Source: an uncultured bacterium (lineage in GTDB: Bacteria; Verrucomicrobiota; Kiritimatiellia; RFP12; UBA1067). Taken from it: DNA of 64,000 nucleotides. The notes beneath the pieces are model-generated. The model worked only from the letters and a program-made list of their open reading frames with translations. It was not told where the DNA came from and did not search any database. Positions 15,611-42,260 of the stretch are shown here, in pieces. A program made the position numbers and the translations under genes. Location: positions 17,599 through 81,598 of the forward strand of contig CADCOC010000017.1 in NCBI GenBank assembly GCA_902802945.1. Direction: 5' to 3'. The stretch's first letter is position 1; each line of letters begins with the position of its first letter.

Positions 15611-15709
15611 TTCCCCAAAATCATGTGTCTTGGCGCAACTTTGGGGAAAAATACGCACAAAATACTTTCATACTTGCCCAAAGTGCTGTGGTTATGATAT
15701 ACTTTGGGC
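15611..15709 (+). promoter_or_regulatory. Two 9-bp inverted repeats sharing a CCCAAA/TTTGGG core; the second brackets an extended -10 (TGaTATACT)
   Basis: TTCCCCAAA(15611-19)...TTTGGGGAA(15640-48). GCCCAAAGT(15676-84)...ACTTTGGGC(15701-09), with TATACT at 15698-15703. AGGAG then ATG 15734 follow. Confidence 0.5.
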
Positions 15710-15733
15710 AGCTATAAACTAGGAGCTGATACG

Positions 15734-17149
15734 ATGATTGGTAGAAAACACGAAATTGAACAATTAATTGCTACTTACGAATCAGGTCAATCTGAGTTCG
15801 TTGCCGTATATGGGCGGCGGCGCATTGGAAAGACGTTTTTGATTACCGAGGCATTCGGCAATCGATTTGCGTTTCACCACACTGGATTACGCGAGGGGGG
15901 GACAAAAAAGCAACTTGAGCAATTCCGTCTGTCGCTTCGCCAACAGGGGTATTATGATTGTCCGCGCATAAAGGACTGGCTGGAGGCGTTCTTTGAGTTG
16001 GAGCGTTTTCTGGAGAAAAGTCCGGCTCAACGGAAGGTCGTTTTCCTTGATGAAATCCCTTGGCTTGATACGCCTCGTTCAGGATTCTTGTCCGCTCTTG
16101 AGTCGTTCTGGAACGGGTGGGCCGTGTTCAGGAAAGACATCGTTCTTGTCGTTTGCGGTTCCGCCACGTCCTGGATTATCAAGAACATCATCCGAAACAA
16201 GGGTGGGCTCTACAACAGGGTGCGCACGCGGATCAAGCTCTTCCCGTTCACGCTTGCCGAATGTGAGAGCTATGCGAATTCCGAACTCCACCTCGGGTAT
16301 GGGAGGAGGGAGATCATGGAATGCTACATGGCGCTTGGCGGAGTGGCGTACTATTGGAGCCTTCTCAGGCGCGGATTGAGTCCGGCACAGAATTTCGACG
16401 CACTGTTCTTTAGTCCGCAGGACGGGCTCCGTACCGAATATGACGAACTCTACCGTTCGCTTTTTAGAAATCCTTTGCGGTACATGGAGGTCGTTGAACT
16501 TCTTGGGACGAGGAGAACAGGCTATACGCGAGACGAGATGATACGCGGGCTCGGAACTGTCAGCGGCGGCGATCTCACGAAGATTCTGGCAGACCTGGAG
16601 GAATGTGGTTTCGTGCGGAAGTACATGCCGTCAGGCCACGGCAAAAACGGCGGAGTCTATCAGCTCGTTGACGGCTACACGCTGTTCTATTTCTCCTTCG
16701 TCAAGGGGAACTCTGCGCGCGACGGCGATTTTTGGCAGCATTCTGTTGGAGATGGGCGTTTGAACGCATGGCGTGGCTTCGCGTTCGAGCGCGTATGCCT
16801 TGCGCATGTCGCGCAGGTAAAGGCCGCTTTGGGAATCTCCGGAGTCAAGACGGAAGCATATTCGCTTCGCGTCAGTCCAGACGAAAACGGACGGGGAGCC
16901 CAGATCGATTTGCTTATTGACAGGCGCGACGGCATCGTCAACTTGTGCGAGATGAAGTATGCAAACGGGAAGTATTCCATCACGGTCGATGAGTCTGAGC
17001 GGATAAGAAATCGAATAGAAGCCGCAAGAAAGCTGTTCGGCAAGAATCGTACCATTCATCTTACCATGATTACGCAAGATGGCATCATCCGTAGCCCGAA
17101 CAGCTGGGATGTCCAGTCCGTCATCACGCTTGACGACCTTTTCCGGTGA
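15734..17149 (+). CDS. ATPase (archaeal-ATPase/ORC-like P-loop) with C-terminal DUF234-like PD-(D/E)XK domain
   Basis: MIGRKHEIEQL...VAVYGRRRIGKTFL is the Walker A. VVFLDEIPW is the Walker B. The C-terminus has AQIDLLIDRRDGIVNLCEMKY, a D...ExK motif. AGGAG lies 8 nt upstream of ATG 15734. Confidence 0.85.
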   Translation: MIGRKHEIEQLIATYESGQSEFVAVYGRRRIGKTFLITEAFGNRFAFHHTGLREGGTKKQLEQFRLSLRQQGYYDCPRIKDWLEAFFELERFLEKSPAQRKVVFLDEIPWLDTPRSGFLSALESFWNGWAVFRKDIVLVVCGSATSWIIKNIIRNKGGLYNRVRTRIKLFPFTLAECESYANSELHLGYGRREIMECYMALGGVAYYWSLLRRGLSPAQNFDALFFSPQDGLRTEYDELYRSLFRNPLRYMEVVELLGTRRTGYTRDEMIRGLGTVSGGDLTKILADLEECGFVRKYMPSGHGKNGGVYQLVDGYTLFYFSFVKGNSARDGDFWQHSVGDGRLNAWRGFAFERVCLAHVAQVKAALGISGVKTEAYSLRVSPDENGRGAQIDLLIDRRDGIVNLCEMKYANGKYSITVDESERIRNRIEAARKLFGKNRTIHLTMITQDGIIRSPNSWDVQSVITLDDLFR

Positions 17150-19137: not shown

Positions 19138-20505
19138 ATGAAAAGAAAGATATACGAGCAACTTCTGAGGTGGAAAAACGAATCCGCCCCCGAGACGGCG
19201 CTGCTGATCGAGGGGGCGCGTCGTGTCGGCAAAAGCTGGATCGTCGAGGAGTTCGCCAAGTGCGAGTATCGTTCCTTTGTTCTTATCGATTTCAACAAGG
19301 TGTCCAAGGCCGTGATCGATGTTTTCAAGAACGACCTTGAGGACCTTGATGTCTTTTTCAGAAAACTCTCAGAATACTACGGCGTGCGGCTTTACGAGGG
19401 GGAGACGTTGTTCGTTTTCGACGAGGTGCAGGAATTTCCGCGGGCGAGGGCGGCGATCAAGTATCTGGTGGAGGACGGAAGGTATCATTTCATTGAGACC
19501 GGAAGTCTCATGTCGATTGCAGAGAACGTCACCGGCATCGTGATTCCGTCGGAAGAGGATTCAATCAAGATGTTTCCCCTCGACTTCGAGGAATTCCTTT
19601 GGGCCACTGGCAGGGCGGACATGGTCGAGACGATCAAGTCGCACCGGCGCGACCTTGTACCGTTCGGGGCGGTTCACCGCAAGATGATAGAGGCTTTCCG
19701 GGAATACGTGGTGGTGGGGGGCATGCCTCAGGCGGTTTCATGTTGGGCCGAGACCCATGACCTCAAGAAGGTCGAGGCGGCGAAGAAGCGAATCCTCAAG
19801 CTCTACCGAAACGACATCCGCAAGCATGCCGGCCGCTATGCCATGAAGGCCGAGGCGGTGTTTGACGAAATCCCGGCGCAGCTGCAGGAGCATGATAAGA
19901 AGTTTCGTCTTGCGGTGATCGGTGCCGATGCGAGGATGCGGGAATACGGCGACGCGTTCCTCTGGCTCAAGGATGCGATGATTGTCAATGTCGCCTACAA
20001 TTCGACAGAGCCGACGGTCGGCCTCAAGCTCAGCGCGGAATACTCGACGCTGAAGTGTTACATGGCCGACACGGGACTGCTGATTTCCCACGCCTTCGGT
20101 TCAAACCCCAAGGCGTTGGAGGAGATCGTCAGGCGTGTCATGTTCGATTCAATCTCGATTAACGAAGGCATGTTGATTGAGAATGCCGTCGCGCAGATGC
20201 TCGTGTCGCAAGGTGTTGAACTGTTTTTCTACGCGAGATACGACAAGAAGGACGCGAAGAATCGAATGGAGATCGATTTTCTCCTCCCAGACGCGCAGAT
20301 CACCCGCAAGAAGCATGTCTCTGCCGTCGAGGTAAAGAGCGAGAACGACTACACGACGTCATCCCTCGATAAATTCAGGCGGAAGTTCGGCCAGTCCATA
20401 AGCGCAGCGTACATCGTCCATCCGGGCGATATCCGCCAAAAGGACGGAATCCTCTACATGCCAATCTACATGACTCCTTGGCTTACTGGTGTGAGCCCTG
20501 CATAG
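19138..20505 (+). CDS. AAA ATPase (AAA_14-like) with C-terminal DUF4143-like PD-(D/E)XK domain
   Basis: LLIEGARRVGKSW is the Walker A. LFVFDEVQEFP is the Walker B. The C-terminus has MEIDFLLPD...VSAVEVKSEN. Paralog of 30851-32200. Confidence 0.85.
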   Translation: MKRKIYEQLLRWKNESAPETALLIEGARRVGKSWIVEEFAKCEYRSFVLIDFNKVSKAVIDVFKNDLEDLDVFFRKLSEYYGVRLYEGETLFVFDEVQEFPRARAAIKYLVEDGRYHFIETGSLMSIAENVTGIVIPSEEDSIKMFPLDFEEFLWATGRADMVETIKSHRRDLVPFGAVHRKMIEAFREYVVVGGMPQAVSCWAETHDLKKVEAAKKRILKLYRNDIRKHAGRYAMKAEAVFDEIPAQLQEHDKKFRLAVIGADARMREYGDAFLWLKDAMIVNVAYNSTEPTVGLKLSAEYSTLKCYMADTGLLISHAFGSNPKALEEIVRRVMFDSISINEGMLIENAVAQMLVSQGVELFFYARYDKKDAKNRMEIDFLLPDAQITRKKHVSAVEVKSENDYTTSSLDKFRRKFGQSISAAYIVHPGDIRQKDGILYMPIYMTPWLTGVSPA

Positions 20506-25495: not shown

Positions 25496-25719
25496 GTAGT
25501 CATGAGCTGGACAACAGAATAGAATACATGGTGACTTGCATAGGCGACTTTGCGGCACAACATGCGATGACGCCTGCAGCCGCATACGCATTTCTTGAAA
25601 AGTACCATGGGCTTGCCTTCTTGACCGACTGCTATGACATCGAGCACACTCAGTCCATTCAAACGGCGGTTGATGACATGTCAGATGTCTGCATTAAGAA
25701 TGGGGGCGTGTTCGCATGA
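25492..25719 (+). CDS. DUF3791-like small protein
   Basis: 75 aa, IEYMVTCIGDFAAQHAMTPAAAYAFLEKYHGLAFL. ATGA-coupled to the next gene. Lower GC than the flanks. Confidence 0.7.
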   Translation: MSSHELDNRIEYMVTCIGDFAAQHAMTPAAAYAFLEKYHGLAFLTDCYDIEHTQSIQTAVDDMSDVCIKNGGVFA

Positions 25720-26216
25720 TTCTGTATCATGGCAGCAACATGGTGTTCAGGACTCCACTTCTGGCAAAATGCAGTCCACACAAGGATTTCGGACAGGGTT
25801 TCTATCTTTCCGATTCATTCGATGTTGCCCGTCGTACCGCGCTTCGTGCTGTGCGGCAACGTGGCGGCGAGCCGTTTGTTCTTGTGTTCGAGGTTGATGA
25901 GAAGAAAATGCGGCAATTGCCTTTCAAGAGGTTTGCGCAACCGGGTAATCGAGCATGGGCAAAGTTCGTACTTGCCAACCGGAATCCGGGCATGGCGGCA
26001 TCGGATCACAACCGGGACCGACGATATGGGTGGGTCGTAGGGCCTATTGCCGATGACGGGCTGGCTTTTCTCTTCAAGATGTTTGAGCGCGGGTACTACA
26101 AACTCGGAGAAGTCTTGCGAAGAATGCAGTTTAGACGGAAATTGACCACTCAGTATTCTTTTCACACGCGTTCTGCATTGGCGTTGCTTGTGTTCAAGGA
26201 GGCCCGACATGTCTGA
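25716..26216 (+). CDS. DUF3990-like protein with ART/PARP-like H-Y motifs
   Basis: MILYHGSNMVF (PARP-like hYHGS) followed by FGQGFYLSDSFDVA (GxGhY). 166 aa. Sandwiched between two DUF3791-like genes, which is the classic arrangement. Confidence 0.7.
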   Translation: MILYHGSNMVFRTPLLAKCSPHKDFGQGFYLSDSFDVARRTALRAVRQRGGEPFVLVFEVDEKKMRQLPFKRFAQPGNRAWAKFVLANRNPGMAASDHNRDRRYGWVVGPIADDGLAFLFKMFERGYYKLGEVLRRMQFRRKLTTQYSFHTRSALALLVFKEARHV

Positions 26217-26563: not shown

Positions 26564-27211
26564 ATGAAAATCGAGGAACTCATTGACAGGGGCGACGAGA
26601 CGGGGCAGCGCATTCGCGAAACGCTGAACGTCCTGCTTGAATCTCCATACTTCTACAAAACGGACGACGAACGCCTGTTTCTCGTCTTGACGCGCTACAA
26701 GCGGGCGTTTGAGTCGTTCTTCGACAAGTTCTTCGGCTGGACGCTCGTGATGGACGCGAAATGCGCGCGTCTCTACAAGCCGAAATGGTTCAACGAGAAG
26801 ATCACGCTGCCCAACCGCGACATGTTCGGCTTCACGAAACGTGACGAGTGCATGGCGTTTCTGCTGCTCATCGAGTTCTTCGAACGTGAATGTCGCGAGC
26901 AGGGCGTGACGGCGGATGACCGCGAAAATCTGCGCTTCCGTTTCGGCGACTGGCTTGAATACGCGGCGGCTCGCTTCCGCGCGTTGATGCCAGATAAAGA
27001 GGAGAACTACACCGATGAGCGCGTGAGGCAGATTTTGCGCGACATCATGCCCGATCTCGTGCGGTATCGTTTTCTGCAAAAAGTGAGACCTTCCGCCGAC
27101 GACAGCGTGAGCGAGGCCGAGACGATCTTCGAGTGTCTGCCTGCCCTCTGGCACTATCAGGCCGCGCAACTCAATCAGCCGGTTGCCGTGGAGGAGGAAA
27201 GCGCATCATGA
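26564..27211 (+). CDS. Small subunit of a condensin-like system (JetB/MksE-like; DUF4194/DUF2398-type)
   Basis: 215 aa, acidic helical protein (LFLVLTRYKRAFESFFDKFFGWTLVMD...MAFLLLIEFFERE). Its stop overlaps the start of the SMC-like ATPase (ATGA at 27208). Confidence 0.6.
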   Translation: MKIEELIDRGDETGQRIRETLNVLLESPYFYKTDDERLFLVLTRYKRAFESFFDKFFGWTLVMDAKCARLYKPKWFNEKITLPNRDMFGFTKRDECMAFLLLIEFFERECREQGVTADDRENLRFRFGDWLEYAAARFRALMPDKEENYTDERVRQILRDIMPDLVRYRFLQKVRPSADDSVSEAETIFECLPALWHYQAAQLNQPVAVEEESAS

Positions 27212-30200
27212 AGCCGCGTGAGAACTATCGAATCACCGCCGTGCGGGTTGTCGAGTTCCACAACCTCGGCACCACGACCATCGAGATTCCCGAAGGCGGG
27301 CATCTGTTTCTTCTGGGCGACAACGGATCTGGCAAGACAACGATCCTTGACGCAATCCACCTGGTTCTGACCGCCGGGCGCGAGATGGAGTTCAACTCTG
27401 CCGCACGCGTTGCGGGCGCGAAGGATTCCGGCGGACGCACCATCCAAGGCATCGTGCTTCGCTACAACGCCGTCACCGGGCGTCCCATGCGCGAGACGGG
27501 CATCACCTACGCTGCGGTGGAGTTGAAGTCGGATGGTGGGCACGTCGTTTCGCTTGCCGTCGGACTTGCGGCGGACGGCATGGACGTCGCCTTCGAACGC
27601 TGGGGCGGTATTGCGTCCGTTCCTGTCGCAGATATTCCGCTTGCCGTCGAGGAAAACGGACGCCTCCGCGCCGCGACGCAGACGGAATTCAAGCGCGGCA
27701 TCACGGCCCTGACGGGCGGCAAGTACTACGGACACATCAACGACTATGCCGACGCCGTCGGGGCGCGTCTCTTCGGCGGCGAGGCGAAATACGCCGACGT
27801 CTGCAAACTCCTTCGGACGGCCAAGGCGTATCGCGAAATCGCGGCACGCGCGGCGAACTATGACGACCTTTTCCGCAAATTGCTTGAGGAACCGAGCCGC
27901 GACACGTTTGAGCCTCTCTTGAAGGGACTTCGCGAACTGGAGGAAAGTAAGGGACGCCTTGAGCAGATTGACGAACGGGCGGCCTACCTGAATGAACTCC
28001 GCCGCGAATCCGAGCGGCTGGAGAAATTGCGTTTTCATGCCGACCTTGTGGCCTGGGCTGAAGCCGATGCGAAGCGTACCGTTGCCGAGCGCGATGGAGC
28101 GACGATCGCCGAATCAGAGCAGGCGGCGCAGAAGGAACTCGCCTCGCTCGAAGGCGAGTGGGCGGCGCTGAAGGACGATGTCGCCCGCGCGCGGGAGCGG
28201 CTTTCGGATTTGCGGGCGAAAGACAAAACCGGCCTTGTTGGGCAGGAAAAGGCCTCCGTGCAGCGTCTCGCCGAGGCTGAGCGCAAACTGTCCGACGCCG
28301 AACGTGTCCTTGCTGAAGACAGGCGCTCAGCGCAAGAGGCGGAAAAGACGGCGAAGTCCGCACGCGAACATCGGGTATCGGCGTTTCGCAAACAGGCGGA
28401 CGATTTGATGTCCGCCGGCAAGACGGCGAATTTCTCGTCTGGTGGAATCGCAGATGCTCTGTATGGCGCGGATACACGGGATTTGACTGAATTGTTTGCA
28501 GAAACGCGTATCAGGGCTACGACGGAAATCAATGCGCGTTCGGACGCAGCGTTTCAAGCGCGTGCAGAAGCCGAAATTGCGCAACGCGAAACCGAGGAAC
28601 GACGCAAGGAACTTGATGCGATACGTGCACGCGGTGAGAACCTGCCGGATGTTCCCGGTTTCGCCGAGGTACGCGAGGAGGTGCGCGCGAAGATGCTGGG
28701 GGCGCGTCCGCTCTACGAACTGCTGGAGCCGGCGTCGGGATGCGACGCGCGCCATCTTGCGTTTTTGGAGCGGCTTGTCGGCGACGACTTTCTTGCGACG
28801 TGGGTCGTGCGGTCTGACGAGGCGGATCAGGTGCGCCGGATCGCGTGGTCGGTAACAACAAGCGGACAACAACAAGGTGTGTGCCCGACCGTGTCTGTGC
28901 GAGGAGAGTCGGACGATGTGTCCGTCAATGACCTTGCGCCGTGGCTGGGAACGTTCGTGTCGTTTGAGGAATCCGATGTCGAGGCGGTGCGCCTGCTCGC
29001 GCGGCATCTTGCGGCAAAGGTGGGGCCGAAGGACGGCGACTTTCTTTCGCAGAAAACATGGCTCTTCAGGGGACGCGAGGGACTCTTGGCAACCGCGAAG
29101 CCGCGTCTCATCGGCGCGAAGGCGCGTGCGGCGGAACAGGCGCGTCTAGAAAAGGCGGCCGAAGCGCGGCTCGCGGAAGCGGAACGTCAGGAGAAGGCGG
29201 CGATGAAGAAAAGCGCCACATGTGAGCAGGCGCTTGCCGCGTTGCAGACGTTCATGACGAGGCTGGAAGATGCAAGGGACGTCTCCGTACGCGAAACCTC
29301 TGCCGTGAACGCAGCCGAGGCGGAGTTGCGCCGTATTGCTGACCGGGTGTCGATTTCGGAGGCGCGCGCAGAGGAGCACCGCCATGCGGTGACTGTATGC
29401 CGTGACGAACTCGAAGACGTGCGCGTGAAGATGCGCGCGGAAGGAATTGACGGTTCGCTTGAAAAGAGAATTGCGTCTGCCGAAAAGACCGTTCGTGACA
29501 AGGAACGCGCGGCGGATGTAGCGCGGGAGAGGATCGGCGGTGTCCGCGGACGGCTCGAAGGTCTCGCGAAGGCGCGCTCGGCGCGGGAAGCTGAGGCGGT
29601 CGAGGCGGCCGCGCGTGCGTCCGACATGTTGTCCCGTTTCGCCGCGCGGATTCCAGAGGGGCAGGACGTTGCGCGGTTCGCAGCAGAGGAGTTTCCGCAA
29701 CTTGCTGTGGAGGGGGCTGACTATTCGGCGCTACGCGAAGGATTGGCGAAAGAGTCGGGTGCGGCGGAGGCGAAGATCGAACAGCGCATCCGCGACCAGA
29801 AAGGCGAGGCGTATGCGTTTTCCTTCGACCGGGCGGCGAACAGCATCACCGACCGTCGCGGCGTTTCGCTTGCTGAGGTGCTTGCGGACGAAACGCGGCG
29901 CGTGGAGGAGCTCAGGGGCGTTCTCGACAAGAAGAGCCGCGAAGTGTTCGAGCAGATATTCATGGGCGAGGTCATGCGGAGGCTCTACCTCGACCTCATG
30001 CGCATCACGGATTTGACCGGACGCATCCAGCGCCAGCTCGCTGGGCGGAAATTCGGATCGAACCGCTATGCGTTTTCCATATCGCCTATTCCAGAATACG
30101 AGGGATTCGTCCGACTCGTCCGCAAGGGTTACGCGCTCGACTCGGGCGGAGAAAAGGACGAGCTTCGGGACTACCTTGAACTGCACAGGGACGAAATCCT

Positions 30201-30705
30201 GAACGCGGACATCGACACGGTCCCCGACATCTTCGACTACCGCAAGTGGTTCCGCTTCGAGCTGAAGGTCGTGACGGAGAACGAGGAGGGACGTGTCATC
30301 GACCGCAAGGTGAAGAGCATGGGATCAGGCGGCGAACAGGCGGTGCCGAACTATCTCCTGATCCTCACCGTCGCGGAATTCCTCTTCCATGGCGGCGATG
30401 GCGTGGAACCTCCCAAGACGGCGCTCCTGCTGTTCGACGAAGCCTTCTATGGGATCGACGCGGCGCGGCGCGACCAGCTGTTGGCTTTTGCCGATGCGCT
30501 CGGACTCCAGCTTTTCGTGTCGTCTCCGGACCAGGACGGTGTGAAGCGCGAGATCAGACATTCCGTTTCGCTGATCGTGGTGAAAGATGAAAACCTTGAC
30601 GTGCACCTGACGCCTGTCGTCTGGCGCAACGTCGCCACGCAGGGTGATTTGCTTGGCGGCGCCGCGCCGGAAGTCGGCATGACGATCAAGGAGGAGACGA
30701 AATGA
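27208..30705 (+). CDS. SMC/Rad50-like ABC ATPase with long coiled coil (JetC/MksB-like; TIGR02680-type)
   Basis: Walker A LLGDNGSGKTTILDAI near the N-terminus. About 550 aa of E/A/R-rich coiled coil. C-terminal signature-like SMGSGGEQ and Walker B ALLLFDEAFYGID. Confidence 0.85.
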   Translation: MKPRENYRITAVRVVEFHNLGTTTIEIPEGGHLFLLGDNGSGKTTILDAIHLVLTAGREMEFNSAARVAGAKDSGGRTIQGIVLRYNAVTGRPMRETGITYAAVELKSDGGHVVSLAVGLAADGMDVAFERWGGIASVPVADIPLAVEENGRLRAATQTEFKRGITALTGGKYYGHINDYADAVGARLFGGEAKYADVCKLLRTAKAYREIAARAANYDDLFRKLLEEPSRDTFEPLLKGLRELEESKGRLEQIDERAAYLNELRRESERLEKLRFHADLVAWAEADAKRTVAERDGATIAESEQAAQKELASLEGEWAALKDDVARARERLSDLRAKDKTGLVGQEKASVQRLAEAERKLSDAERVLAEDRRSAQEAEKTAKSAREHRVSAFRKQADDLMSAGKTANFSSGGIADALYGADTRDLTELFAETRIRATTEINARSDAAFQARAEAEIAQRETEERRKELDAIRARGENLPDVPGFAEVREEVRAKMLGARPLYELLEPASGCDARHLAFLERLVGDDFLATWVVRSDEADQVRRIAWSVTTSGQQQGVCPTVSVRGESDDVSVNDLAPWLGTFVSFEESDVEAVRLLARHLAAKVGPKDGDFLSQKTWLFRGREGLLATAKPRLIGAKARAAEQARLEKAAEARLAEAERQEKAAMKKSATCEQALAALQTFMTRLEDARDVSVRETSAVNAAEAELRRIADRVSISEARAEEHRHAVTVCRDELEDVRVKMRAEGIDGSLEKRIASAEKTVRDKERAADVARERIGGVRGRLEGLAKARSAREAEAVEAAARASDMLSRFAARIPEGQDVARFAAEEFPQLAVEGADYSALREGLAKESGAAEAKIEQRIRDQKGEAYAFSFDRAANSITDRRGVSLAEVLADETRRVEELRGVLDKKSREVFEQIFMGEVMRRLYLDLMRITDLTGRIQRQLAGRKFGSNRYAFSISPIPEYEGFVRLVRKGYALDSGGEKDELRDYLELHRDEILNADIDTVPDIFDYRKWFRFELKVVTENEEGRVIDRKVKSMGSGGEQAVPNYLLILTVAEFLFHGGDGVEPPKTALLLFDEAFYGIDAARRDQLLAFADALGLQLFVSSPDQDGVKREIRHSVSLIVVKDENLDVHLTPVVWRNVATQGDLLGGAAPEVGMTIKEETK

Positions 30706-30751
30706 GCAGATTATTGTTGAAATCGGCAAATTTGATACAGCGTGAGACTGT

Positions 30752-30834
30752 TTCGTTCATAAAATGTGGGCCATACTGGAAAAGTTCGTTCATAAAATGT
30801 GGTGGCTGGTCATTGATTACGTTCATAAAATGTG
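30752..30834 (+). repeat. Three direct repeats (cgttcataaaatgtg core) at exact 33-bp spacing (30754, 30787, 30820); the third runs into TATTATACT (-10)
   Basis: ttcgttcataaaatgtgg x2 and acgttcataaaatgtgatattatact, followed 6 nt later by ATG 30851. Same geometry as 19016-19114, with an unrelated repeat sequence. Confidence 0.9.
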
Positions 30835-30850
30835 ATATTATACTGTCTAG

Positions 30851-32200
30851 ATGAAAAGGCAGATTATAGACAAGATGGAAGCCTGGGATGAGTCGGCGGA
30901 CAGAAAGCCGCTGATTTTGATGGGCGCGAGACAGGTTGGCAAGACTTGGCTGATGGAGGAATTTGCTCGGCGTAGGTATGTCGGCAACACGGTTGTTGTC
31001 AATTTCATGAAGAGCGAGCGACTGCGTCTGCGGTTTGAAACGACAGACCTTGATCCGAAGTCCATTATAGAGGCCATATCAATCGAGACGGGACAGAAGA
31101 TAGTTCCCGGCAAGACGCTTCTTGTGCTGGACGAGATACAAGAGTCGCCGCGCGCGTTGACTGCGCTCAAGTTCTTTAACGAGGACATGCCGGATTTGGC
31201 TGTCATGGCAGCGGGGTCGCTTTTGGGGCTTGCCGTGAACAGGAAAAAGAGGAAACGCGACGCCAATTCATTGCAGCTGGCGAAGGCGTCGTTTCCGGTA
31301 GGCAAGGTTGCGTTCCTTGACGTTCCGCCTATGACTTTTGAAGAGTTTCTCTTGGCAGTCGGCGAGGATTTGAAGTGCAACGCGCTAAAGAAATGTGACT
31401 GGAAGATGGTTGGCTTGTTCCATGACAGTTATTGCGAACTGCTCCGAAAATACTATTTCGTAGGGGGAATGCCAGGGGCTGTCCAGTCCTTTTCGGAGAA
31501 CGGGGACTTTGCGCTGGTGCGCGATGTCCACAGGACGATTCTCCGGGCGTATGACGAAGATTTTGCAAAGCATGCCGATGGCCCTCTTCTGGCAAAGATA
31601 CGGTTGCTTTGGAATTCGATACCGGCGCAGCTTGCGAAGGAGAACAAGAAGTTCGTCTATACTGCGCTGCGTCCGGGAGCCAGGGCAAGAGAGTACGAAG
31701 TCGCGCTTCAATGGCTGGAGGACGCGGGGATGATTCGAATCGTCCGCAATGTATCAACGCCTCAGCTGCCTCTTGCGGCATACGAGGAGTTCGGAGCTTT
31801 CAAGCTCTACGCGCACGACATAGGGCTAGTTGGTGCGATGGCCGGTGTCCCGCCGCAGATACTGCTTGATGGTGATAGTTTGTTTACCCATTTCAAAGGG
31901 GCGCTGACGGAGCAGTATGTACTTGAAGAATTGACAGCGTTGGGATTGTCGCCAAACTACTGGTCGCCGGACAACATAAAGGCGGAGGTGGAATTCCTTC
32001 TCCAGATCGGGACAATGATATGCCCGCTTGAGGCAAAGGCCGAAACGAACCTGCGTGCGAAGTCGCTCAAGTCATACATTGATCGGTTCAACCCGCGCAA
32101 GGCCCTGCGTGTATCGATGTCCAAGTGGTCGTCCGGCGAACGAATCGACGACTATCCGCTCTATGCGATACCAGAGGCGATAAAGGTTTTGGACCAATAG
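30851..32200 (+). CDS. AAA ATPase (AAA_14-like) with C-terminal DUF4143-like PD-(D/E)XK domain
   Basis: LILMGARQVGKTWL is the Walker A. LLVLDEIQESP is the Walker B. The C-terminus has AEVEFLLQIGTMICPLEAKAE. Lower GC than the flanking condensin-like genes. Confidence 0.85.
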   Translation: MKRQIIDKMEAWDESADRKPLILMGARQVGKTWLMEEFARRRYVGNTVVVNFMKSERLRLRFETTDLDPKSIIEAISIETGQKIVPGKTLLVLDEIQESPRALTALKFFNEDMPDLAVMAAGSLLGLAVNRKKRKRDANSLQLAKASFPVGKVAFLDVPPMTFEEFLLAVGEDLKCNALKKCDWKMVGLFHDSYCELLRKYYFVGGMPGAVQSFSENGDFALVRDVHRTILRAYDEDFAKHADGPLLAKIRLLWNSIPAQLAKENKKFVYTALRPGARAREYEVALQWLEDAGMIRIVRNVSTPQLPLAAYEEFGAFKLYAHDIGLVGAMAGVPPQILLDGDSLFTHFKGALTEQYVLEELTALGLSPNYWSPDNIKAEVEFLLQIGTMICPLEAKAETNLRAKSLKSYIDRFNPRKALRVSMSKWSSGERIDDYPLYAIPEAIKVLDQ

Positions 32201-32225
32201 AATCTAAACAGACAAAGGAGAGAAC

Positions 32226-32894
32226 ATGAACAATCAAAATCGGACGACTCAAGGTTGGGTTTACATTCTAACAAATCCGAGCTTTCGTGAAGATTGGGTG
32301 AAGATTGGGAAAAGTTCGCGCCCAGTCGATATTCGATCCAAGGAACTCGATAACACTGCAGTTCCATTGCCTTTTGAGATTTATGCGACGCTCAAAACCG
32401 CGAAGTACGAAATTGTTGAGCGGAAGATACACAAGGCCATTGACCGCCTGACCGATTTGCGGATTCGGCAGAACAGAGAGTTTTTCAACATCAAGCCCGA
32501 ACTAGCCCTTGAGATTCTAACCGATGAGGCAACATTGCTAGACGACGCAGAGATCGTGCGTTACAAAGACAATAGGCCGATTGTACACAACAGTCAAGAG
32601 GATGTGTGCGAACGGGAGCGTCCGAGGAGAGCGCGATTTAAGTTTAGCATGGTCAATATCCCAATCGGCTCAAAGCTTGTCTTTGTTCCAACAGGTGTTG
32701 AGGTCAAGGTCGCGGGTGATGATCAGATAGAGTATGAAGGAAGGATATACAAATTATCGCCTTTTGTAGGAACATTTATGCCGGAAGATCATCGAAACAC
32801 TTCTGGCGCATATCAAGGTGCAAAATACTTTTCCTACAATGGCAAGATACTGGATGACTTGCGCCGTGACATGGAGGAATCCTTCGCTGATTAG
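32226..32894 (+). CDS. GIY-YIG superfamily (T5orf172/MUG113-like) domain protein with unknown C-terminal domain
   Basis: GWVYILTNPSFREDWVKIGKSSRPVDIRSKEL...ERKIHKAI...NREFFNI is the typical T5orf172 pattern. The C-terminal ~90 aa (FKFSMVNIPIGSKLVF...IEYEGRIYKLSPFV...YFSYNGKILDDLR) are unassigned. GC looks about 45% by eye. Confidence 0.7.
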   Translation: MNNQNRTTQGWVYILTNPSFREDWVKIGKSSRPVDIRSKELDNTAVPLPFEIYATLKTAKYEIVERKIHKAIDRLTDLRIRQNREFFNIKPELALEILTDEATLLDDAEIVRYKDNRPIVHNSQEDVCERERPRRARFKFSMVNIPIGSKLVFVPTGVEVKVAGDDQIEYEGRIYKLSPFVGTFMPEDHRNTSGAYQGAKYFSYNGKILDDLRRDMEESFAD

Positions 32895-32909
32895 GCATAG
32901 GGAGAAATC

Positions 32910-33284
32910 ATGGCTGACATGTTGGTAAGATCGGAAATTGAGTTGTCCGTGCCCGTGGCGGAACGCCACATCAATGCGGCACGAGAAGCGGCATCATATC
33001 TGACGACCGACAAGTCGTCGATACAAATCGAGATAGTTGGTGAAGGCAAAAACTGGATTTACACCACGTTCCCTGTGAAACGAGCGCGTCAGGTAGATGT
33101 GTGCGACAGGATTGCGAAGGAAATGAGCATGGAAATGGAAGATTACCAGGACCAGATACTATGTTTCTTAAAATCAGAGGCTGAACAGCGTCGTGACCAG
33201 CGAAAGCTCGAGCGGGCAAAGGAGCGTCGCCGCCAAGCCAGGATGCTGCGCGAAGCGGCGAAACAAAATAAGGAAACAGAATGA
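32910..33284 (+). CDS. Hypothetical 124-aa protein with K/R/E-rich C-terminal tail
   Basis: ORF 15 nt after the preceding stop. The C-terminus is [35 protein letters not shown]. No motif recognised. Its stop overlaps the next ATG (ATGA). Confidence 0.55.
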
Positions 33285-33412
33285 TAACGAGGGAAACTCC
33301 AGACGTAACAGACGCCGTTCAAGCTTTCAAACATACAAGTACCAAAGTAAGGCGTAACGATCCGTGCCCATGTGGAAGCGGAAAGAAGTACAAGAAGTGT
33401 TGTGGCAGATAA
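33281..33412 (+). CDS. 43-aa SEC-C-motif (zinc-binding) microprotein
   Basis: [43 protein letters not shown] carries the canonical SecA C-terminal-type [14 protein letters not shown] motif. Below the ORF-track length cutoff. Confidence 0.55.
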
Positions 33413-33431
33413 GGGAGATGGAGGTGTCGAA

Positions 33432-34673
33432 ATGGGTGAGGGTCCGCTGACCAAAGACAAAATCGCCGCCGCGATTCAAAACGCGCCGGCGGTGGAGGGG
33501 GTGCTGAAGAAACTTGCGGGCAAGGTCGCGCGCGGCGTGCGGCTGCCGGCGTCATTTACCGCGAGGGGGCTTGATTACGCGGCGCAGCGCGAGCTGGAGC
33601 ACTTTCTTGGTGCCATCGGGCAACGTCAACCGGACGGTTCCTTTTACATCCAACTGCACGAGTTCCTGCGTGGCCCTGAAATGTGGCGCGAGGCGATGGA
33701 GTATTTCGGACTATTGAGAGAAAGGGATGGTGACGATGACGAGGATGTGTTTCCACGGTTGAAACTGATTGAGCCCGATCTTTCACCACTCATCGACAAG
33801 CTTGCAGCGAACGAAGAGGTTGTGCGGTTTCTCGCCCATCCAGAGAACAAAAAGGACTGGATTCGGCTCTTCCGCTCCTTTGTCGGGAGATTCGACGGCC
33901 CGGAGTGCGGACTTGTCACGACGCTTTCCCAGCTTGGCTCGGACTGGTTCGGCGACAGCAAAAAGCTGAGGAGCGGCGGGTTGCGCCGCCAGCTGGCCAT
34001 AATTGCCGCAACACTGGCCGATTCGCCCTTGGATGACGAAAGACGTGCGCTTGAGGGGGCTCTGATCGTTGACAATCCCTACACGAGTAGCGTCACGTTC
34101 TCTGCGCCAGTGCATCTGATTCTGAAGGATGGAGAGGTGCTTGATTATCCCTGTCGCTACTATGTCAGAAGAATGGCGACGCAGCTTCCGCTTGAGACGG
34201 TCCTTGAGCTTGCGGAGGTTAAATGGGCCGGTAAGGTTCGCGGCGTGACGACGAGCGAAAATGCCGCCCCCTTTGCCAACATGGTGCGGAAAGGAGACGC
34301 CTGCGTCTACACCGGCGGTTATCCGTGTCTGGCGGTCAAGATATTCCTCCATAAGCTCGGTGCGACAGGATCAGAATGCATCCATGAAGGAGACGCCGAC
34401 CTGGACGGATTCAGAATCGCGTCCGAAGTCGGCAAATGCATTGTGCTCAAGCGGGTTGTCGCGTCCGACATCCTTGAACACGCCACGCCAGATGCGGGGC
34501 GCGAATTGACATCAGACCAGTCGAAACGCGCTTGGGAGTTTCTTTCAAATCCACAGTGGAAGAACTTCCGGTTCGCGGATGATGTGAGACGGATGTTGTG
34601 TCGCGGACGTTGGATTGAGCAGGAATCGTTCGGCGCGATTATTCGCAAGTCCAAGAAGGATGCGGGACAGTGA
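33432..34673 (+). CDS. Toprim-like nuclease subunit of the condensin-like system (JetD/MksG-like; DUF2399/TIGR02679-type)
   Basis: The C-terminal domain has VTTSENAAPFANMV (Toprim Glu) and IHEGDADLDGFRIASEV (DxD), then RWIEQESF. GGAGG-like ribosome-binding site before ATG 33432. Confidence 0.7.
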   Translation: MGEGPLTKDKIAAAIQNAPAVEGVLKKLAGKVARGVRLPASFTARGLDYAAQRELEHFLGAIGQRQPDGSFYIQLHEFLRGPEMWREAMEYFGLLRERDGDDDEDVFPRLKLIEPDLSPLIDKLAANEEVVRFLAHPENKKDWIRLFRSFVGRFDGPECGLVTTLSQLGSDWFGDSKKLRSGGLRRQLAIIAATLADSPLDDERRALEGALIVDNPYTSSVTFSAPVHLILKDGEVLDYPCRYYVRRMATQLPLETVLELAEVKWAGKVRGVTTSENAAPFANMVRKGDACVYTGGYPCLAVKIFLHKLGATGSECIHEGDADLDGFRIASEVGKCIVLKRVVASDILEHATPDAGRELTSDQSKRAWEFLSNPQWKNFRFADDVRRMLCRGRWIEQESFGAIIRKSKKDAGQ

Positions 34674-36274
34674 GGCGGCGGATTGAGAGGCAGGCGGCAG
34701 ATTTGTTCGCCGAGGTTGACGGTCACGCGGGAAGTGCGGCCGGTTCGGCGTGCGCGGCGCGCCCGCCCTACCATGATGACGAGTCTGTCGGGGCCGTATC
34801 GCTGATAAGTTCCCCGCTTGTGGATGAGACGAAGGAATGGCTTTCGGCACGTGCGCTTACGCTCGGCAACATGCTTGCGAGCGAACGCGCCGTCGAGTAT
34901 GTCGCGATCCTGCGTGCGCTTGCCGCGTTTCGCGCGGAACACGAGCCGGAGCCTCTGCATGAGGACGTGGAGCGGAAAGTTTGCGGCGAAGACGCCGAGG
35001 TGTCCGCATCGGTGACATTCAAGGCAGATATCCACCAGCTGAAGGAATGGAACCTCATCACGGAGCGCATCGAGAAGGAGCGCTTGCGCGGCTATCGCGA
35101 CAACCGGCGTGCGAAATTCCGCTATCGGATGTGCGATGACGCGGCGGCGTTCGTGGAATGGCTGGCGGACCGCCATGCACACGACCTCTTGCCCGGCGGC
35201 GGGGACGAGACGGGGAATCTTCTCGACATGCAGCGGTCGATCCTCGCCGAGCTTCGGCGGATGTTGCACCGTGTCGATGCTGCGCACGTCGGCTACGAGA
35301 CGGCGGGCGACGTCCTCTTTCGTGTCGACCAGGTGTCGCGTTACGTCGATGCGACGGCGAAGACGCTTCAGGAACTCAATCTGCGGCTCCTGAGTTTCGG
35401 CATCGCCGAATTCTCCGCGGAAGAAGCAAAACCGATTGTCGATGAACTTGCGGTATTCCTTGAACGGTTCGGGAGACGCTTCGGGACGCTTCGCGAGGAC
35501 ATCCTGCGCGATGTCGAGGAGATGCGGCGCGACTGCCATGCGAAACGGTGGAAGGCGTGTGCGGAGACGTTGGCGGCGGAGACCTCGCGGTTCCGGCATA
35601 TCGCGTCCGTGAAGATCCCCGACGCGCAGCGTATTCTCGCCGACGCATCGCTCTTCTACGGAGCAGGCGGCACGCTCGTTTCGCTCATGTCGCGCATCGG
35701 CGACTCGGCGCGGAAGGTCTGGGGGAAGCTCAACGCGAAGCTGCGCGAACTGGAGCGTCGCAACCACCGCATCGAGGATGTCGGCGCGCGTCTTGCGGAA
35801 CTTGCACGGCTTGACGAAGGGAACGTGCCTCATCGTTGGCTGCAGCGGCTTCTTGAGCCTGCGGCGATGTGCGGCGACGCACAGGTGAGGCCGAATGGAG
35901 AGAAGTCAGTCGCACCGCTTCCCAAGAGATCGTCGAACGTCAAAACTCAGAAGATCATCTCTTGGATCACGCCGCGCAAGGTCGGGGAGCGTCCAGACGT
36001 CGCATCCATCGCGCAGGAACGCGCGAAGCGCCTGAGAGATTGGATGACCGCGCGCGAAATCTATCCGTCGAGCGGGACGTCCGCGCTTTCAGGAGGCACC
36101 TATTCCGAGTTTGAGGATTTCCCCAACCTGATGAACGTCATCGAGCATGTCTGGCTGGGAGGTGGCGAGAAGGCTCGGAAACTCCTTGATGTTCGCGGCA
36201 CGCCGACAGGAGAAGGCGCAAAAGTCTCAATCGACCAGGCCACGTTGGAGTTTGAAGACATCATGCTTGAATGA
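34670..36274 (+). CDS. Large non-ATPase subunit (JetA/kleisin-like; DUF2397/TIGR02677-type)
   Basis: GTG start overlapping the previous stop (GTGA). ERAVEYVAILRALAAFRAEHE and HQLKEWNLITERIEKERLRGYRDNRRAKFRYRMCDDAAAFVEWL resemble the winged-helix N-terminal region of the DUF2397 family as I recall it. Confidence 0.6.
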   Translation: MRRRIERQAADLFAEVDGHAGSAAGSACAARPPYHDDESVGAVSLISSPLVDETKEWLSARALTLGNMLASERAVEYVAILRALAAFRAEHEPEPLHEDVERKVCGEDAEVSASVTFKADIHQLKEWNLITERIEKERLRGYRDNRRAKFRYRMCDDAAAFVEWLADRHAHDLLPGGGDETGNLLDMQRSILAELRRMLHRVDAAHVGYETAGDVLFRVDQVSRYVDATAKTLQELNLRLLSFGIAEFSAEEAKPIVDELAVFLERFGRRFGTLREDILRDVEEMRRDCHAKRWKACAETLAAETSRFRHIASVKIPDAQRILADASLFYGAGGTLVSLMSRIGDSARKVWGKLNAKLRELERRNHRIEDVGARLAELARLDEGNVPHRWLQRLLEPAAMCGDAQVRPNGEKSVAPLPKRSSNVKTQKIISWITPRKVGERPDVASIAQERAKRLRDWMTAREIYPSSGTSALSGGTYSEFEDFPNLMNVIEHVWLGGGEKARKLLDVRGTPTGEGAKVSIDQATLEFEDIMLE

Positions 36275-42184: not shown

Positions 42185-42260
42185 GGGACTGTAGCTCAGT
42201 TGGTAGAGCACGACACTTTTAATGTTGGGGTCGCGGGTCCGATCCCCGCCAGTCCCACCA
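42185..42260 (+). tRNA. tRNA-Lys (anticodon UUU), CCA encoded
   Basis: Cloverleaf by eye: acceptor GGGACTG/CAGTCCC, D arm GCTC-AGTTGGTA-GAGC, anticodon arm CGACA-CTTTTAA-TGTTG, T arm GCGGG-TCCGATC-CCCGC, then A-CCA. Confidence 0.9.

Follow-up and report, generated by a model that had tools for sequence, protein, structure and literature searches.

The locus described here belongs to an uncultured bacterium of the Kiritimatiellia (RFP12; UBA1067; assembly GCA_902802945.1, contig CADCOC010000017.1), of which positions 17,599-81,598 of the forward strand were analysed; we call this whole stretch of 64,000 nucleotides the window and number it from its first letter. Window positions 26564-36274 hold, all on the plus strand and on one continuous sequence, four open reading frames (ORFs) related to the jetABCD genes of Wadjet systems, three other full-length ORFs and a last one of 43 codons, in the order B-C-[2.7-kb insert]-D-A (Table 1). 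The four jet ORFs are full length and free of internal stops, and their catalytic motifs are intact. They are flanked by housekeeping and glycan-degradation genes (FAD oxidoreductases, GH127, a beta-helix protein), and for this reason we take the locus to be chromosomal. We believe that it is an intact chromosomal Wadjet (JetABCD) system of a rumen Kiritimatiellia bacterium, a reading to which we give a probability of about 0.8, and we regard its homology to Wadjet as firm, with little room for doubt. Specifically, it is a permuted, cargo-bearing variant of a single-KITE, type II-like class.

Table 1. Features of the jet locus and its 5' neighbour, in window coordinates (aa, amino acids; AF2, AlphaFold2; SMC, structural maintenance of chromosomes; ABC, ATP-binding cassette)
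Feature	Position	Strand	Evidence or content	GC
JetB-like single KITE, 215 aa	26564..27211	+	Pfam DUF2398, PADLOC JetB1/JetB2	
JetC-like SMC/ABC ATPase, 1165 aa	27208..30705	+	AAA_29 + SbcC_Walker_B; PADLOC JetC1	
AT-rich spacer	30706..30850	+	Iterons and promoter-like site	0.37
Cargo 1: AAA_14 + DUF4143 ATPase (PDC-S01), 449 aa	30851..32200	+	Pfam 3.5e-20 / 1.4e-30	
Cargo 2: T5orf172/MUG113-domain protein (PDC-S57), 222 aa	32226..32894	+	T5orf172 6e-12	
Cargo 3: 124-aa protein	32910..33284	+	No match in Pfam or PADLOC	
43-codon remnant, SEC-C motif tail	33281..33412	+	tblastn, blastn deletion map	
JetD-like protein, 413 aa	33432..34673	+	DUF2399, JetD_C, PADLOC JetD1	
JetD N-terminal winged-helix-like domain, residues 1-95	33432..33716	+	AF2 domain	0.618
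JetD CAP/Toprim nuclease body, residues 104-413	33741..34673	+	DUF2399, JetD_C, Foldseek	0.563
JetA-like kleisin, 534 aa	34670..36274	+	DUF2397, AF2/Foldseek	
DUF3990 protein, variable neighbour outside the Jet system	25716..26216	+	PADLOC candidates PDC-M13, PDC-M10	0.52

The Jet-like proteins and their affiliation

An earlier, sequence-only reading of this DNA had called the locus a divergent Wadjet member, and that affiliation holds. The ORFs it listed, with their coordinates, strands and motifs, were all recovered; hidden Markov model (HMM) searches with Pfam, TIGR and PADLOC profiles gave significant but weak matches to Jet families for all four proteins; and Foldseek searches with AF2 models matched JetA and JetD to Wadjet proteins or their relatives. 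It had also remarked on the small subunit, which is indeed short. JetB matches DUF2398 at 3.7e-9 (36.6 bits, cut-off 26.9), over profile positions 2-84 of 363 only, and has full-length matches to DUF4194 and MksE that are both below threshold (DUF4194, 21.6 bits against 32.7). PADLOC JetB1 models match it too, and JetB2 models do so in lobe 1 or in lobe 2, the latter at profile positions 215-325 of 420. In a search of 1.84 billion representative proteins, its full-length relatives were all of 209-298 aa, and we read the 215-aa protein as a complete single KITE, not a truncated one. PF09661, PF13835 or PF21980 is carried by relatives.

The ATG of jetC at 27208 overlaps the jetB stop codon as ATGA. 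The encoded ATPase has a Walker A motif (GDNGSGKTT) at residue 37, a signature motif (SGGE) at 1040 and a Walker B motif (LLLFDEAF) at 1073, and it matches PADLOC JetC1 at 3e-40 and JetC2 at 1.7e-27. TIGR02680 matches the C-terminal half only, at 3e-12 (45 bits against a cut-off of 463), and the sole sequence match in the PDB is N. vireti JetC (9qe0_A, 3e-10), in the head.

For jetD we take the ATG at 33432 (MSESPLTK...), where the homologues all begin; a longer reading of 433 aa from the GTG at 33372 was rejected, as homologues give it no support. JetD matches PADLOC JetD1 at 8e-17, and DUF2399 and JetD_C at about 1e-6, both above cut-offs; its homologues carry precomputed PF09664/PF09983. 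Foldseek pairs the AF2 model (mean predicted local distance difference test, pLDDT, 88.7) with Topo VI-A (8e-6), MksG (8b7f, 1.1e-5) and Spo11. The motifs TSENAAPF and GDADLDGFRI are present, and acidic residues E276, D321, D323, D325, E396 and E398 are invariant across 36 homologues. The N-terminal domain DUF3323 was not detected in the window JetD, and appears in distant relatives only (L056, weakly, and L061; L numbers denote comparison loci).

The GTG of jetA overlaps the jetD stop codon as GTGA. JetA reaches 1e-6 against DUF2397, at 28.4 bits for a cut-off of 28.5, and 24 bits against TIGR02677 (cut-off 166). PF09660 is precomputed on most of the 120 JetA homologues listed, and the N-terminus is conserved among homologues. 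The AF2 model has a winged-helix domain at either end, with a helical bundle after the N-terminal one and a disordered linker (residues 398-444) before the C-terminal one; its best Foldseek match is JetA of the N. vireti type II Wadjet (9qe0_E, 3.5e-8), followed by MukF (3.4e-4).

The locus is like type II Wadjet (N. vireti, PDB 9QE0/9QE1) in combining a kleisin, a KITE, an SMC ATPase and a Toprim nuclease, in the resemblance of JetA, JetB and JetD to DUF2397, DUF2398 and DUF2399, and in that nvJetA is the best structural match of its JetA and nvJetC the only PDB protein matched by sequence. The sequence-only reading had supposed this TIGR0267x branch to be barely characterised, which is not the case: type II Wadjet has been reconstituted and its structure solved, with a JetB that is a 388-aa tandem KITE of four winged-helix domains (bioRxiv 10.1101/2025.03.10.642339; PDB 9QE0/9QE1). 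Unlike type II, the window encodes a single KITE about which nothing is tandem, a JetC that is shorter (1371 aa in the solved type II system, about 1350-1370 aa in type II generally) and scores 45 bits against TIGR02680 for a cut-off of 463, and a B-C-D-A order with an insert; its A, B and D proteins, moreover, are not detectable by sequence against the solved type II chains.

With the type I, MksBEFG and EptABCD systems (E. coli GF4-3, P. aeruginosa, C. glutamicum) the locus shares a single-KITE JetB, of about 200-240 aa in those systems, a JetC near their 1100-1150 aa, JetC1 and JetD1 as best PADLOC models, a JetD fold matching MksG 8b7f and, presumably, the extrusion-cleavage mechanism. It is unlike them in that DUF4194 stays below threshold in JetB and that the order is not F-E-B-G (A-B-C-D). 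The type I hallmarks DUF3375 (JetA) and DUF3322 (JetD N-terminal) gave no Pfam match in the window proteins, and of the type I JetD domains DUF3322 and DUF2220 only JetD_C (DUF2220) was matched. A type III assignment was rejected: no type III PADLOC model matched JetA, JetB or JetD (E <= 0.01), and none was among the 25 of 60 JetC matches listed. MukBEF and MksBEF also unite SMC, kleisin and KITE, and MukF is the second-best structural match of JetA, but these condensins have no nuclease subunit, whereas the window family always has JetD. Overall, the lineage appears to be a Wadjet homologue of a single-KITE, type II-like class that has not been described before.

Gene order among relatives

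Gene order was surveyed, as the sequence-only reading had proposed, on tblastn maps of about 40 independent contigs from metagenome-assembled genomes (MAGs), with JetA 54-94% identical. Three cyclic orders were found: B-C-D-A in roughly 18 loci (the window and about 17 others), D-A-B(-C) in 6-7 (L024, L025, L027, L028, L029, L032) and the canonical A-B-C-D in 9-11 (L034-L039, L041, L046, L049); no non-cyclic order occurred among the contigs mapped. The permuted order reported for the window is one of three within the family. The new junctions of the permuted operons are tight, as the D/A overlap in the window illustrates.

Distant single-KITE relatives, gathered by a JetB protein search and contig look-ups, served as an outgroup, and in this group all six distinct loci, Victivallis included, are tight A-B-C-D operons (JetA DUF2397 about 500-564 aa, JetB 212-266, JetC 1152-1180, JetD 386-432); the Victivallis vadensis relative, of 212 aa, is annotated as a "DUF2398 family protein". 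The same order, as mksFEBG, has been described as conserved (PMC10123090). The proposal that the kleisin gene has moved to the 3' end is borne out by this outgroup and by the A-B-C-D order of the deeper family members. On a JetA tree the orders are clade-specific, and D-A-B-C is nested within the B-C-D-A clade; at least two block swaps must therefore be invoked, and in gut and rumen Kiritimatiellia the operon appears to have gone through two or more cyclic rearrangements, from A-B-C-D to B-C-D-A to D-A-B-C, where number and direction are approximate, the tree being a simple neighbour-joining one with midpoint rooting. Cyclic order alone is no proof of a circular intermediate, because any swap of adjacent blocks that spans the operon yields a cyclic order.

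Every close relative is from a Kiritimatiellia MAG of gut or rumen origin. The family is abundant in such MAGs and present in Victivallis too, and a host of the Planctomycetes-Verrucomicrobia-Chlamydiae type, which had been thought an unusual setting, is no exception. Two comparison contigs are binned to Alistipes and Limosilactobacillus, probably by mis-binning.

Several relatives are incomplete or have further neighbours. In L005 (12995-13651) a deletion runs from about JetD residue 86 to about JetA residue 392, and jetB is disrupted; in L053 (10001-11267) JetA fragments are joined to JetD residues 115-400, and jetB and jetC have been lost. In L044 (5653-9121) jetD and jetA come after a PDC-S57-like gene, and neither jetB nor jetC is present in the 5.6 kb upstream or the 10 kb downstream; either the insert here is very large, or D and A are an orphan pair. 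A gene for an SNF2-family helicase of 860-930 aa (Pfam SNF2-related, Helicase_C, ResIII, DEAD; a SWIM-like motif was judged by eye only) adjoins the operon 3' of jetA in L014-L016 and 3' of jetB in L027.

A mosaic nuclease subunit

JetD does not share one history along its length. Compared with L008, the window has a nucleotide identity of 91-99% across jetB, jetC and some 250 nt at the start of jetD; the remainder of jetD is 47-69% identical, and jetA again 89-99%. Residues 1-95 of JetD are 87-93% identical to those of L012, L014, L015 and L016, whose JetA is 92-95% identical, yet the body is only 42-49% identical to the closest operons and 88-90% identical to L018-L020 and L022, loci that share the JetD class of the window with a JetA merely 77-84% identical. 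Within the window clade (JetA 89-95% identical), JetD residues 104-400 fall into four classes that are mutually 42-56% identical. The N-terminal domain thus follows the JetABC backbone and the body does not. The breakpoint usually lies at the low-confidence linker (residues 96-103) that separates the two domains in the AF2 model; it lies earlier in L006, and in L017 (JetA 90% identical) it is at ~residues 40-50, with an N-terminal domain that is only 64% identical.

These comparisons show that recombination has exchanged the JetD nuclease body and left the N-terminal domain in place. In type I systems, N-terminal JetD sequences connect the nuclease to JetABC (preprint), and since type I JetD docks onto JetABC by this part, the retained N-terminal domain is probably a docking module. 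The authors of the type II study proposed anti-Wadjet pressure as a driver of Wadjet diversification and left as an open question which subunits are targeted (bioRxiv 10.1101/2025.03.10.642339). The mosaic pattern points to JetD as a target, and its swapping probably reflects pressure from plasmid-encoded anti-Wadjet factors.

The insert between jetC and jetD

The sequence-only reading had the operon split between ATPase and nuclease, and close relatives confirm this: in L003, L004 and L006-L009 the insert (30706-33431) is absent, and jetC and jetD overlap as ATGA. The insert is itself a mosaic, whose pieces occur separately in L015, L044 and L016 at 82-97.5% identity. Its ATPase matches PADLOC PDC-S01 at 1e-160, and the gene is 97.5% identical in nucleotides to the L015 insert; its T5orf172 protein matches PDC-S57 at 2e-69, and the gene is 82% identical to that directly 5' of jetD in L044. 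The gene for the 124-aa protein is 96% identical to one in L016, which there precedes an intact PRiA4_ORF3 + SEC-C gene. This 263-aa gene product, encoded intact in L001/L015 and L011/L016, is represented in the window by the 43-codon remnant of its 3' end, about 700 bp having been deleted relative to L016. As the SEC-C gene directly follows the 124-aa gene in L011/L016, the pair may form a two-gene module. The insert genes have a GC content of 0.46-0.53, as against 0.57-0.62 for jetB, jetC and jetA.

Copies of GGAGG-N5-AAATG(A/G)G bound the insert, with GGAGGAGACGAAATGAG at its left end and GGAGGTGTCGAAATGGG at its right, and the right end supplies jetD with a ribosome-binding site and start (GGAGG-N7-ATG). 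Inside the C|D insert of L018, between a p124 fragment and a PIN7 gene, lies a 69-bp copy of the jetC 3' end (1426-1494, 87% identical), which serial recombination at the junction may have left behind. Both the junction-motif copies and the L018 copy fit integration by recombination at the junction. No integrase, transposase or recombinase gene was noticed in or beside the window locus.

Elsewhere in the family the C|D or B|C junction holds GmrSD, ORF6N with or without a PLD-like domain, PIN7, and Schlafen/AlbA_2 with a helix-turn-helix domain; further cargo includes a YhcG PDDEXK nuclease, NERD, a second kind of DUF4143 ATPase and SWIM/TPR proteins. All cargo called at junctions lies on the operon strand. 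At B|C, where inserts replace the variable C-terminal tail of JetB, no junction duplications like those at C|D were found. In the D-A-B-C clade, the genes 5' of jetD include the DUF4143 ATPase cluster that lies between C and D in L049, which suggests that a cargo-bearing C|D break preceded the D-A-B-C rearrangement.

The spacer at the head of the insert carries, 5' of the PDC-S01 gene, three exact CGTTCATAAAATGTG repeats at a spacing of 33 bp (30754, 30787 and 30820). A promoter-like site, TTGATT-17-TATTAT, lies at 30813-30841, with the third repeat between its -35-like and -10-like hexamers. The triplet (15-16-nt repeat; 30754-30834 in the window) is also present in L014-L016, L021, L063 and L065-L067, at the C|D junction in L014-L016 and L021, and it precedes S01-type ATPase genes, their products only 46% identical, in Bacteroidaceae-binned contigs. 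We had considered it as a Jet-specific regulatory site and rejected this, the same triplet standing 5' of S01-type ATPase genes in unrelated contigs; for the same reason we assign it to the ATPase module and not to Wadjet. The comparison suggests a candidate conserved operator or iteron of a widespread AAA_14/DUF4143 ATPase family.

Discussion

By analogy with type I and type II biochemistry, we would expect this system to restrict plasmids by extrusion and cleavage. The SMC motor formed by JetA, JetB and JetC would load on DNA and extrude it, stalling once a small circular molecule has been fully extruded; the stalled motor would then present the DNA, in bent form, to a dimer of JetD for cleavage by its Toprim site. 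An intact Wadjet system of this kind is the reading we prefer, and the considerations that tell against it concern both its proteins and its setting. Searches of all PDB chains with JetA, JetB and JetD, by phmmer with the single sequence and with a profile from the family alignment, gave no meaningful match; as these profiles match no PDB chain, the lineage is remote from every solved Wadjet and its classification relies on family HMMs and predicted folds. The JetB assignment has HMM support only, and the JetA model is of moderate quality (pLDDT 74, predicted template-modelling score 0.40) with low Foldseek TM-scores (0.3). The comparison loci are all MAG or metagenome contigs, the rooting of the tree has the bearing on the rearrangements given above, and two related loci, L005 and L053, are visibly decaying. 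The main risk to function lies in the insert, which could be polar on jetD and jetA.

Defence genes inside larger defence operons are familiar from PrrC/RloC in the hsd loci of type I restriction-modification systems and from BrxU/GmrSD in BREX loci. The insert resembles these in that stand-alone defence genes lie between operon genes, in the same orientation and with strain-variable content; it is unlike them in that the host operon is Wadjet, that insertion takes place at two set gene junctions, B|C and C|D, and that C|D inserts in the window family are bounded by copies of the stop/start overlap sequence. We weighed whether the insert genes are passengers or parts. They could be functional accessories, for instance a sensor or regulator ATPase acting with JetD: AAA_14/DUF4143 ATPases of two clusters adjoin jetD in the window, L013, L015 and L018, and in L049, and stand 5' of D in L024, L028 and L029; the cargo keeps to the operon orientation; and L021, which has no large cargo at its C|D junction, still has the iteron region there. 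Against this, many close relatives lack any insert, cargo content varies between loci, the iteron and ATPase module is found without Jet genes in the Bacteroidaceae-binned contigs, the window has two AAA_14-type ATPase genes besides the one in the insert, and PADLOC defines PDC-S01 and PDC-S57 as single-gene candidate systems. We consider an accessory role unlikely; the insert genes are probably independent, hitch-hiking defence genes and not Wadjet subunits.

The insertion might instead have disabled the system, uncoupling jetD and jetA from jetB and jetC and starting a decay now under way. Translational coupling of C and D has been lost, relatives with internal deletions or frameshifts exist (L005, L053), and one cargo gene is already a remnant. 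The jet genes themselves, however, bear no such marks, being full length with their catalytic motifs preserved; the right end of the insert provides jetD with its own initiation signals; intact genes surround different inserts in several independent lineages; and the entire D-A-B-C clade has jetD and jetA in a separate, upstream expression context. A disabled Wadjet is accordingly improbable in our estimation. Still less can be said for a mainly chromosome-organising, MksBEF-like condensin in place of a defence system, to which we assign very low odds. The chromosomal setting among housekeeping and glycan-degradation genes would suit such a role, and Wadjet-like systems have been proposed as the ancestors of MukBEF and MksBEF (bioRxiv 10.1101/2025.03.10.642339), but a JetD nuclease with invariant Toprim residues is always there, the flanking genes vary between loci, defence-type cargo gathers in and around the operon, and the nuclease undergoes allele swapping of a kind that typifies genes under conflict. 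An origin of the permuted orders in faulty metagenome assembly or binning, at which the MAG origin of all comparison loci and the two implausible bins (Alistipes, Limosilactobacillus) might hint, we think hardly credible, given that every order is found again in many independent assemblies, made in different studies, and agrees with the protein tree, that the new junctions are tight or overlapping reading frames, and that the window itself runs B-C...D-A without a break.

With an intact, cargo-bearing Wadjet as the preferred reading, its interest lies in what it adds to a known system, to which our results are comparative additions. Wadjet is a widespread barrier to plasmids and hence to the genetic manipulation of bacteria, and current models of it draw on a single type II system and a handful of type I systems, each an A-B-C-D operon. 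The three clade-specific cyclic orders, the junction-specific cargo, the swapping of JetD modules and the single-KITE class go beyond the sequence-only reading, and in a literature search of incomplete coverage we found no paper on Wadjet operons with permuted genes or internal cargo, or on the exchange of JetD alleles. The lineage, which joins a type II-like nuclease and kleisin to an unfused KITE and a short SMC protein, may be an intermediate, and so bears on the origin of the tandem KITE. The operon tolerates cyclic rearrangement and internal interruption, and annotation tools that depend on gene order or adjacency may miss such systems. The mosaic JetD suggests that it is the nuclease body that diversifies, with the N-terminal domain conserved, probably for docking, and it offers natural chimeras; the phylum is under-studied, and the genes at the junctions are a source of defence-gene candidates in it.

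A broader proposal, which is speculative and which as a whole we hold to be doubtful, is that the lineage is modular throughout, with the JetD body exchanged as a cassette, the C|D junction (and perhaps B|C) capturing cargo, and the single-KITE class ancestral to type II. If this were true, the exchange of the JetD body between strains with the docking domain kept would be the first population-level sign of counter-defence that targets the Wadjet nuclease. Cargo would be captured by single-crossover (Campbell-type) integration of circular DNA bearing a copy of the junction, and the same integration acting on whole-operon copies would yield the cyclic orders. Tandem-KITE type II would then descend from the wider, unfused class of single-KITE, DUF2397-type systems.

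Neighbouring features

An Rfam scan of the window from 20 to 40 kb found no RNA family. A tRNA as integration site was rejected; the single nearby tRNA, tRNA-Lys at 42185, lies 6 kb off and is unrelated to the locus. Two further AAA_14-type ATPase genes, one ATPase_2/AAA_14 and one AAA_14 + DUF4143, stand among housekeeping genes at 15704-17149 and 19138-20505, less than 12 kb upstream and without the iteron triplet, which makes three such genes in 20 kb. The DUF3990 gene lies between a VanX-like dipeptidase gene and jetB and marks another variable spot, at the 5' edge of the operon: it is absent in L002, L008 and L010, where the VanX-like gene directly adjoins jetB.

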